Source of the DNA: an uncultured virus (IMG/VR IMGVR_UViG_3300008261_000048) | Lineage: Duplodnaviria > Heunggongvirae > Uroviricota > Caudoviricetes | Direction: 5' to 3' (one strand) | Length of the DNA stretch: 64,000 bases | IMG/VR virus record: IMGVR_UViG_3300008261_000048 | Coordinates: 1 to 64,000 of that record | In this document: positions 11,626 to 11,829 of the stretch, one piece after another | How the letters are laid out: every line of letters begins with the position of its first letter | How positions within the stretch are numbered: the first letter of the stretch is position 1 | Program-made: the position numbers and the translations under genes | Notes under the pieces: generated by a model | Databases searched by the model: none | What the model saw: the letters and a program-made list of their open reading frames with translations, nothing else | What the model was told of the DNA's origin: nothing

Positions 11626-11652
11626 AAACAAACACAATGTGAGTATATATAA
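11626..11652 (+). promoter_or_regulatory. Putative promoter AAAC-N17-ATATAA driving the leader ORF
   Basis: Matches a motif recurring at 10 other gene starts. Confidence 0.65.
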
Positions 11653-11673
11653 ATAACAAATAAAACAATTTCA

Positions 11674-11769
11674 ATGCAACTGCACGGATGTACATATTGG
11701 ATTCTTAGTAATGTGGAAAAGAATTTTCCGCAGGCGGATTCAATTACACCAAGTCCAGGCAGGAGCTGA
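11674..11769 (+). CDS. Putative attenuator leader peptide MQLHGCTYWILSNVEKNFPQADSITPSPGRS (all 20 amino acids)
   Basis: ATG after an A-rich leader, TGA-TAA double stop, 19 different residues in the first 22 codons, followed by a terminator. Confidence 0.8.
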   Translation: MQLHGCTYWILSNVEKNFPQADSITPSPGRS

Positions 11770-11792
11770 TAAGATAAAACACTTATAATACT

Positions 11793-11829
11793 AAGCCTCC
11801 TGGATAAAAAATTCCGGGAGGCTTTTTTT
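11793..11829 (+). terminator. Intrinsic terminator (attenuator) upstream of the tRNA array
   Basis: AAGCCTCCTGGA-TAAAAAAT-TCCGGGAGGCTT then T-run; 5' arm complementary to 11754-11767. Confidence 0.9.

Follow-up and report, generated by a model that had tools for sequence, protein, structure and literature searches.

In DNA of an uncultured virus assigned to the Caudoviricetes, an array of tRNA genes is headed by what is probably a ribosome-mediated (leader-peptide) transcription attenuator, a reading that rests on features of the nucleotide sequence. The DNA analysed, called the window here, is the first 64 kb (64,000 nucleotides) of a 77.9-kb viral contig rated about 30% complete. To our knowledge, the control of tRNA arrays in phages is hardly known, and no description of leader-peptide control of tRNA genes, either in phages or in bacteria, was found in the parts of papers covered by a full-text literature search, in agreement with a preliminary description of this DNA that knew of no equivalent.

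The window has a G+C content of about 35% and codes for a tail sheath protein, both subunits of a type II topoisomerase, the exonuclease subunit of a DNA polymerase, PhoH, thymidylate synthases and a phage sigma factor. The sequencing runs that contain parts of it are mostly lake and freshwater metatranscriptomes, and a megablast search of positions 11000-12300 against deposited phage genomes returned four records with tRNA-sized matches only and no relative. The features around the array are as follows:

11089-11470, plus strand: phage tmRNA gene (ARAGORN; Rfam RF00023, 110 bits), upstream of the proposed switch
11535-11608, plus strand: tRNA-Gly(GCC), upstream of the proposed switch and outside its gate
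11674-11769, plus strand: leader open reading frame (ORF) of 31 codons and TGA, with its ATG at 11674, its stop codon at 11767-11769 and all 20 amino acids
11793-11829, plus strand: intrinsic terminator, with a 12-pair stem and an 8-nt loop (11793-11824) and a T7 run (-22.0 kcal/mol)
11918-14651, plus strand: tRNA array of 21 genes for 19 amino acids (Gly being served upstream)
14115-14564: ORF of 149 codons inside the array region, before the last tRNA

As tRNA-Gly stands upstream of the leader ORF, 21 of the 22 tRNA genes would be under the control of the gate. Some further observations concern the surroundings of the ORF. The tag peptide of the tmRNA ends in YAVAA, and a hairpin directly 3′ of tRNA-Gly (11614-11643, -9.4 kcal/mol, with 10 of 200 shuffles folding as well) is kept in relatives with a partly changed sequence. 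Three spacers of the array (12649-12720, 12873-12971 and 13574-13655) are 100%, 93% and 90% identical to those of the related contig L009, compared with only 73% for the leader spacer, and a number of the other spacers cannot be aligned. These three spacers received no call from ARAGORN or Rfam, and their folds are unremarkable and give no strong signal; small RNAs that escape recognition, or recent exchange, may account for them.

The composition of the leader ORF was the starting point of the analysis. The preliminary description had reported 31 codons with all 20 amino acids and 19 of them within the first 22 codons, and each of these counts was confirmed. Twelve amino acids occur once, the commonest (Ser) occurs four times, and runs of regulatory codons are absent. 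The ORF is also the most diverse stretch of the window, being the sole case with 19 kinds of amino acid among 42001 stop-free 22-codon windows in the six frames, while all 20 kinds are found in 3 of 31612 31-codon windows, two of which overlap the ORF and the third of which lies inside the gene at 49942. Twenty kinds were reached by 1 of 3000 stop-free shuffles of the bases of the ORF itself, and among 12437 ATG-started windows of 31 codons, drawn from 160 other phage loci, 2 were equally diverse. The preliminary description had also pointed out that residues that are repeated tend to use different codons; this is so in the window, but it is not kept in relatives, as both Gln codons are CAA in L005 and L009.

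It seems very improbable to us that these features are due to chance, the ORF being a random open frame in a spacer beside a terminator that was picked after the fact. The feature was chosen after being seen, and at least one 22-codon window with 19 kinds arises in 5 of 40 random 64-kb sequences with the dinucleotide make-up of the window, so that rarity inside the window is by itself indecisive and position matters. The position of the ORF, exactly before a terminator at the head of the array, argues against chance, as do its conservation across six variants and the replication of the design in independently sampled arrays, with controls (see below).

The start codon of the leader ORF lies in an A-rich context without a Shine-Dalgarno sequence, which is normal for this phage, as only 5 of its 43 long genes carry the core of that sequence (38 do not, one of them having no upstream sequence to judge). 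For the transcription of the leader, a candidate promoter can be proposed:

11648-11655, plus strand: TATAAATA, located 18 nt ahead of the ATG

This motif, which we take to be the consensus of T4 late promoters, is exact in L009 and carries one change in L005 and in L007. It is not enriched across the window (10 found and 10.0 expected), but it stands 20-21 nt before the leader ATG in three of the phages surveyed below (L210, L226 and L329), compared with 16 of 8701 control short ORFs. The window codes for a phage RNA polymerase sigma factor (22721-23401; phrog_1740, E 1e-15), which could read sites of the TATAAATA type. A different element, AAAC-N17-ATATAA, had previously been described as promoter-like at this place; its letters are present, but it was missed by a sigma-70 scan.

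The second part of the proposed attenuator consists of two pairings that compete for the same strand. That the 3′ end of the ORF is complementary to the 5′ arm of the terminator, with 21 tRNA genes behind it, had been claimed before and was corroborated by duplex calculation. The regions involved are:

11680-11689, plus strand: region 1, a possible anti-antiterminator, which pairs with region 2 in the fold of the full transcript
11752-11764, plus strand: region 2, the antiterminator strand, which ends 2 nt before the stop codon
11795-11806, plus strand: region 3, the 5′ arm of the terminator, common to antiterminator and terminator

The duplex between regions 2 and 3 has 7 + 3 pairs and one bulge, with a free energy of -16.3 kcal/mol. 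Pairing at least as good was given by 5 of 5000 random 21-mers and 60 of 3000 random 102-nt segments. When the upstream stretch was shuffled, 85 of 2000 and 24-28 of 1000 versions paired equally well or better. In the predicted fold of the full transcript, region 1 sits on region 2 and the terminator is formed, while in a transcript that ends at 11806, and thus lacks the 3′ arm, the pairing of region 2 with region 3 is favoured (-38.0 kcal/mol). Four of the region 1 pairs are invariant in the variants described below, and two or three of the other four are broken in L009. Besides the tRNAs and the tmRNA, an Rfam scan gave sub-threshold matches only, which overlap 11706-11838 in the leader; the two best, with 27.6 and 24.4 bits where 60 and 44 are required, are driven by the terminator.

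These structures suggest a mechanism in which the transcript would begin just upstream of the ORF, or would arrive as read-through from the tmRNA and tRNA-Gly, and the 31-codon frame would be translated while the RNA polymerase advances. A ribosome that promptly reaches the stop codon would cover 11752-11764, so that the terminator could form and transcription would end. By contrast, slow decoding at an earlier codon (a ribosome stalled at or before about codon 21), or failed translation, would leave region 2 free to pair with region 3, and this pairing would block the terminator and let the polymerase continue into the 21 tRNA genes. More phage tRNA would then speed up translation of the leader and shut the gate, which would amount to negative feedback. 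As each of the 20 amino acids is represented about once in the frame, the transit time of the leader would report on the whole pool of charged tRNAs; sensitivity to a shortage of any single amino acid should be low, each occurring one to four times and without runs. Since the absence of all translation may, according to the model, also yield read-through, the switch would report translation capacity in general. The layout and geometry of an attenuator, as put forward in the preliminary description, hold in the sequence; Arg occurs at codon 30, within the antiterminator (a caveat raised there as well), too near the 3′ end for a stall to give read-through.

Relatives of the element were gathered through the topoisomerase gene and by DNA pattern searches, of which three covered viral contigs and one covered metagenome contigs. 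The three viral-contig patterns led to the same 13 contigs and the metagenome-contig pattern to 6 true cases among 11 hits, and only six distinct versions of the element occur across both collections. The ATG, the length of 31 codons, the position of the stop codon and the presence of all 20 amino acids are kept in all six, and the ORF and the terminator are constrained, whereas the spacer between the stop codon and the terminator varies freely in sequence and length. In L009, the most distant version, the sole Lys and the sole Phe of the peptide have disappeared from their sites but are found again at neighbouring positions. All 20 kinds survive 17 random substitutions in 0.9% of simulations, and gentler null models keep them in 8.2% (observed sites with random bases) or 4.1% (eight random replacements) of cases. 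The first 22 codons of L009 contain 17 kinds only, and its Arg, Gly and Phe are, by the proposed geometry, too near the 3′ end for read-through.

Within this clade, positions 11754-11764 are invariant and regions 2 and 3 never vary, so no covariation between these two regions is to be seen. In the terminator, a G-C pair is replaced by A-U in L009, a compensatory change, and there are several changes from G-U to A-U. A G-to-A change in the terminator arm of L009 was considered as a break of the antiterminator and rejected, since it lies outside the pairing in the register of the duplex calculation. In the more distant relatives L010 and L043, whose arrays hold 7 and 20 tRNAs, neither an ORF resembling the leader nor, at the head of the array, a terminator on the same strand is present.

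The conservation of the element has to be weighed against the idea that it is a noncoding regulatory RNA, or an attenuator controlled by a protein or a ligand, in which the alternative folds of the structured stretch 11660-11829 respond to something other than a translating ribosome, the open frame being incidental, an explanation that we consider quite unlikely. The ORF stretch does fold better than its shuffles (z -3.9, 0 of 200), one compensatory pair is found in an inner hairpin, and third codon positions are more conserved than those of the topoisomerase: identities to L009 at the three codon positions are 0.87/0.84/0.74 in the ORF, close to flat, and 0.89/0.94/0.59 in the topoisomerase. 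This near-flat profile implies that RNA-level constraint is mixed with any coding constraint. Against this explanation, the frame is open and of fixed length in all six variants, the leader has no Rfam match above threshold, and pairs of the inner helices are lost uncompensated in L007, L138 and L009; moreover, it does not predict that ATG frames of 25-52 codons with unusual amino-acid diversity should recur in unrelated modules, ending 23-34 nt before the terminator stem, which they do. In a separate assessment of the ORF as part of a structured small RNA, 4 of the 47 predicted pairs were changed on both sides and several were broken within the ORF, and that reading was not preferred.

Alternatively, the ORF could be an ordinary small phage gene, coding for a 31-residue peptide with a function of its own and followed by its own terminator, which would also end the tmRNA/tRNA-Gly unit; the array would then be driven only by a downstream promoter-like element, and the pairing and the diversity would be incidental. 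This seems to us unlikely, although several observations agree with it. The ORF is conserved with some synonymous excess (6 of 15 variable codons show synonymous changes only, against 1-3 in the other five frames, which have stops), the version in L009 was called a gene by IMG, and terminators are expected between transcription units. There is also a conserved element that could serve as the downstream promoter, as the preliminary description had already noticed:

about 11835-11869, plus strand: promoter-like element between terminator and array (TTCAGA-N16-TATATT at 11840-11867)

The element ends in TATATTTG, which presumably fits the -7 motif of the Bacteroidota. It is reused at about 14655, in a second copy at about 14650-14683, so that two copies flank the tRNA array (CTCTTTCAGAAA ... 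TTATATTTG). It is conserved in relatives and also precedes the topoisomerase region of L010 and L043. Relatives that lack the large array carry a single copy, located in front of the topoisomerase region, and insertion of the array together with a duplicated promoter, or beside one, is a possibility. As a conserved promoter-like element sits after the terminator, the tRNAs of the window need not depend on read-through, and the switch would here act as an additional input.

No homologue beyond the clade was found among 1.84 billion representative proteins, which also speaks against such a gene: phmmer returned four hits, two of which are repeat-rich chance hits and two of which are real, namely P0002 (the peptide of L009) and P0001. 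The latter, from a singleton contig of 954 nt, carries an A21V variant in which the sole Ala is lost. P0001 is a predicted protein of 99 residues in which an unrelated N-terminal part, presumably resembling a fragment of asparagine synthase, is fused in frame to the leader peptide, which may point to a chimeric assembly or to a rearranged variant.

One more motif accompanies the array and is invariant in relatives:

11892-11907, plus strand: 16-nt motif GTTCTTTRACATATTG, 10 nt before the first tRNA

It has two matches in the window, where 0.24 are expected, and the other copy (11074-11089) abuts the 5′ end of the tmRNA. Near versions of it stand just before the first tRNA in L210, L211, L212, L246 and L314, and in two phages a version follows directly after the T run of the terminator. 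The motif could be a promoter or an RNA-processing signal.

The evidence that bears most on the choice between these explanations and a leader-peptide attenuator comes from the tRNA arrays of other phages. The sample consisted of viral contigs with two adjacent tRNA T-loops (the first 80 loci for each of two patterns), taken without regard to leaders. For blocks with three or more tRNAs, ARAGORN gave 90 heads with one pattern and 98 with the other. Within 250 nt upstream, terminators on the same strand that passed the strict criteria were present at 12 of the 90 and 7 of the 98 heads, compared with 0 of 90 and 1 of 98 on the opposite strand and 7 of 450 random segments. After the removal of repeats, 14 unique head terminators outside the clade of the window were left. 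When the 100 nt upstream were compared with the 5′ arm of the terminator, complementarity that at most 30 of 1000 shuffles equalled was found at 9 of these 14 (L210, L212, L226, L227, L246, L253, L314, L329 and L380, but not L198, L211, L221, L228 or L263) and at 3 of 132 control terminators away from tRNAs (Fisher 6e-9), a difference that speaks against an ordinary small gene.

At 9 of the 14 heads, an ATG frame of 25-65 codons has its end 23-34 nt ahead of the stem. All 20 kinds of amino acid occur in L226 (33 codons), L211 (47 codons) and L380 (52 codons), 19 kinds in the 32 codons of L210 and L329, and 18 kinds in the 28 and 31 codons of L212 and L227, respectively. The diversity of short ORFs that end 10-50 nt before the stem reaches P<0.05 at 6 of the 14 heads, with a combined P of 8e-6, and shuffles of each ORF's own composition agree with this result. 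The leader peptides of the surveyed phages cannot be aligned with each other. Short pieces of the terminator or of the motif before the tRNAs link the window with L210, L211, L212, L246, L314, L227 and L380, while L226 and L329 form a separate family with no sequence common to the window. What had been suggested as a way to check the idea, namely a look upstream of other phage tRNA arrays, has thus brought to light diverse short ORFs of divergent sequence whose 3′ ends match their own, different terminators. Both the small-gene and the RNA-only explanations, as well as chance, are weakened mainly by this survey: what recurs across related modules is the length, the placement, the diversity and a 3′ end matched to the terminator, and not the peptide sequence.

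The survey is also informative on the dependence of the arrays on read-through. Only 7 nt separate the terminator from the first tRNA in L380 and L253, and in L212 (34 nt) and L314 (29 nt) the intervening stretch is filled by the T run and the 16-nt motif. As there is little or no room for an ordinary separate promoter, these four arrays seem to depend on read-through, as far as the sequence can tell, unless the 16-nt motif is a compact promoter; L380 and L253 in particular sit badly with an array driven only from downstream of its terminator.

The design varies among phages. The leader of L246 (1717-1791, on the minus strand of the locus) has 25 codons, is not diverse and precedes a Phe-Ile-Gln-Arg-Trp-Tyr-Asn-Met tRNA block; 16 of its 25 residues belong to the eight amino acids of the block, all eight of which are present, and its 3′ end matches the terminator (equalled by 1 of 1000 shuffles). 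It looks like a leader matched to its block, not one of the type that contains all amino acids. In other cases the design is missing: L221 shows neither diversity nor complementarity, the head terminator of L263 simply ends a gene of 170 codons, and L198, L228 and L253 have no short ORF of the leader kind before the terminator.

Some RNA data are available as assembled contigs from four freshwater libraries (X1, X5, X7 and X8). Contigs of the tmRNA match exactly in X1, X7 and X8 and with one difference in X5, and their depth is far above that of the neighbouring spacer. The leader is thinly covered: two contigs bridge the terminator into tRNA-Ser, one in X5 (11682-12006, a close variant with a depth of 5.7) and one in X1 (11799-11962, with a depth of 2.8), and they may represent read-through RNA or carried-over DNA. 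Positions 11624-11787 have no contig cover in X1, X7 and X8, an absence that carries no weight.

More generally, and with somewhat less than an even chance in our estimation, many large phages may run their tRNA genes behind a “tRNA homeostat”, that is, a leader whose composition mirrors the tRNA set (all 20 amino acids, or a subset as in L246), wired to a terminator/antiterminator switch and often placed behind a phage-specific promoter, by which tRNA output would be raised when decoding falters. If this is true, such homeostats would add a new class of regulated genes to leader-peptide attenuation, extending a textbook mechanism to a new kind of target, and would equip the phage with its own sensor of tRNA-targeting immunity. 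With every amino acid represented in a leader that gates tRNA transcription, the state of the whole decoding pool would be sensed by simple feedback, and the attenuator itself, being short (about 180 nt), would be a portable reporter of translation capacity.

Several known systems may be compared with the proposed attenuator. In E. coli and Salmonella, leader-peptide attenuators control amino-acid operons, as with trpL, hisL, thrL, ilvL and pheL. Such leader-peptide transcription attenuators are dealt with in two papers (PMC1183508, PMC3082878). The phage element resembles the trp/his type in having a short leader ORF (translated in those systems) ahead of an intrinsic terminator whose 5′ arm is contested by an antiterminator, in the placement of the stop codon, where a ribosome that finishes the leader would mask the antiterminator, and perhaps in a 1:2 pairing. 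It differs in that its leader contains all 20 amino acids about once each, without runs of regulatory codons, and in that the genes behind the gate are tRNAs instead of biosynthetic enzymes; there is no sequence homology. The lack of codon runs and of common sequence sets the phage leader apart from the trp/his type, though its working would be similar.

A second comparison concerns attenuators in which ribosome stalling senses general translation trouble, such as the leaders of the erm, vmlR, bmrCD and topAI type. As proposed here for the phage, the slowing of a ribosome on a short leader leads to read-through, whichever amino acid is involved; in contrast to these leaders, which respond to drugs and control resistance or stress genes, the signal in the phage would be tRNA supply and the output tRNA. 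A macrolide example is given in PMC4335068.

As in T-box riboswitches, tRNA charging would be coupled in the phage to the choice between terminator and antiterminator, and no Rfam match to a T-box was found in 10500-15000 at E up to 1. A T-box binds one uncharged tRNA directly and needs no ORF.

Finally, phage tRNA genes have been presented as a counter-defence to tRNA-cleaving immunity, such as PARIS and retron effectors (PMC11464382, PMC11555353, PMC12409363). The available parts of these three papers describe the tRNAs and mention no sensor of tRNA transcription. They do provide a motive for the attenuator proposed here, since a phage could gain from raising its own tRNA supply when host tRNAs fall, and a host attack on tRNAs might thus be among the conditions under which the gate would open.
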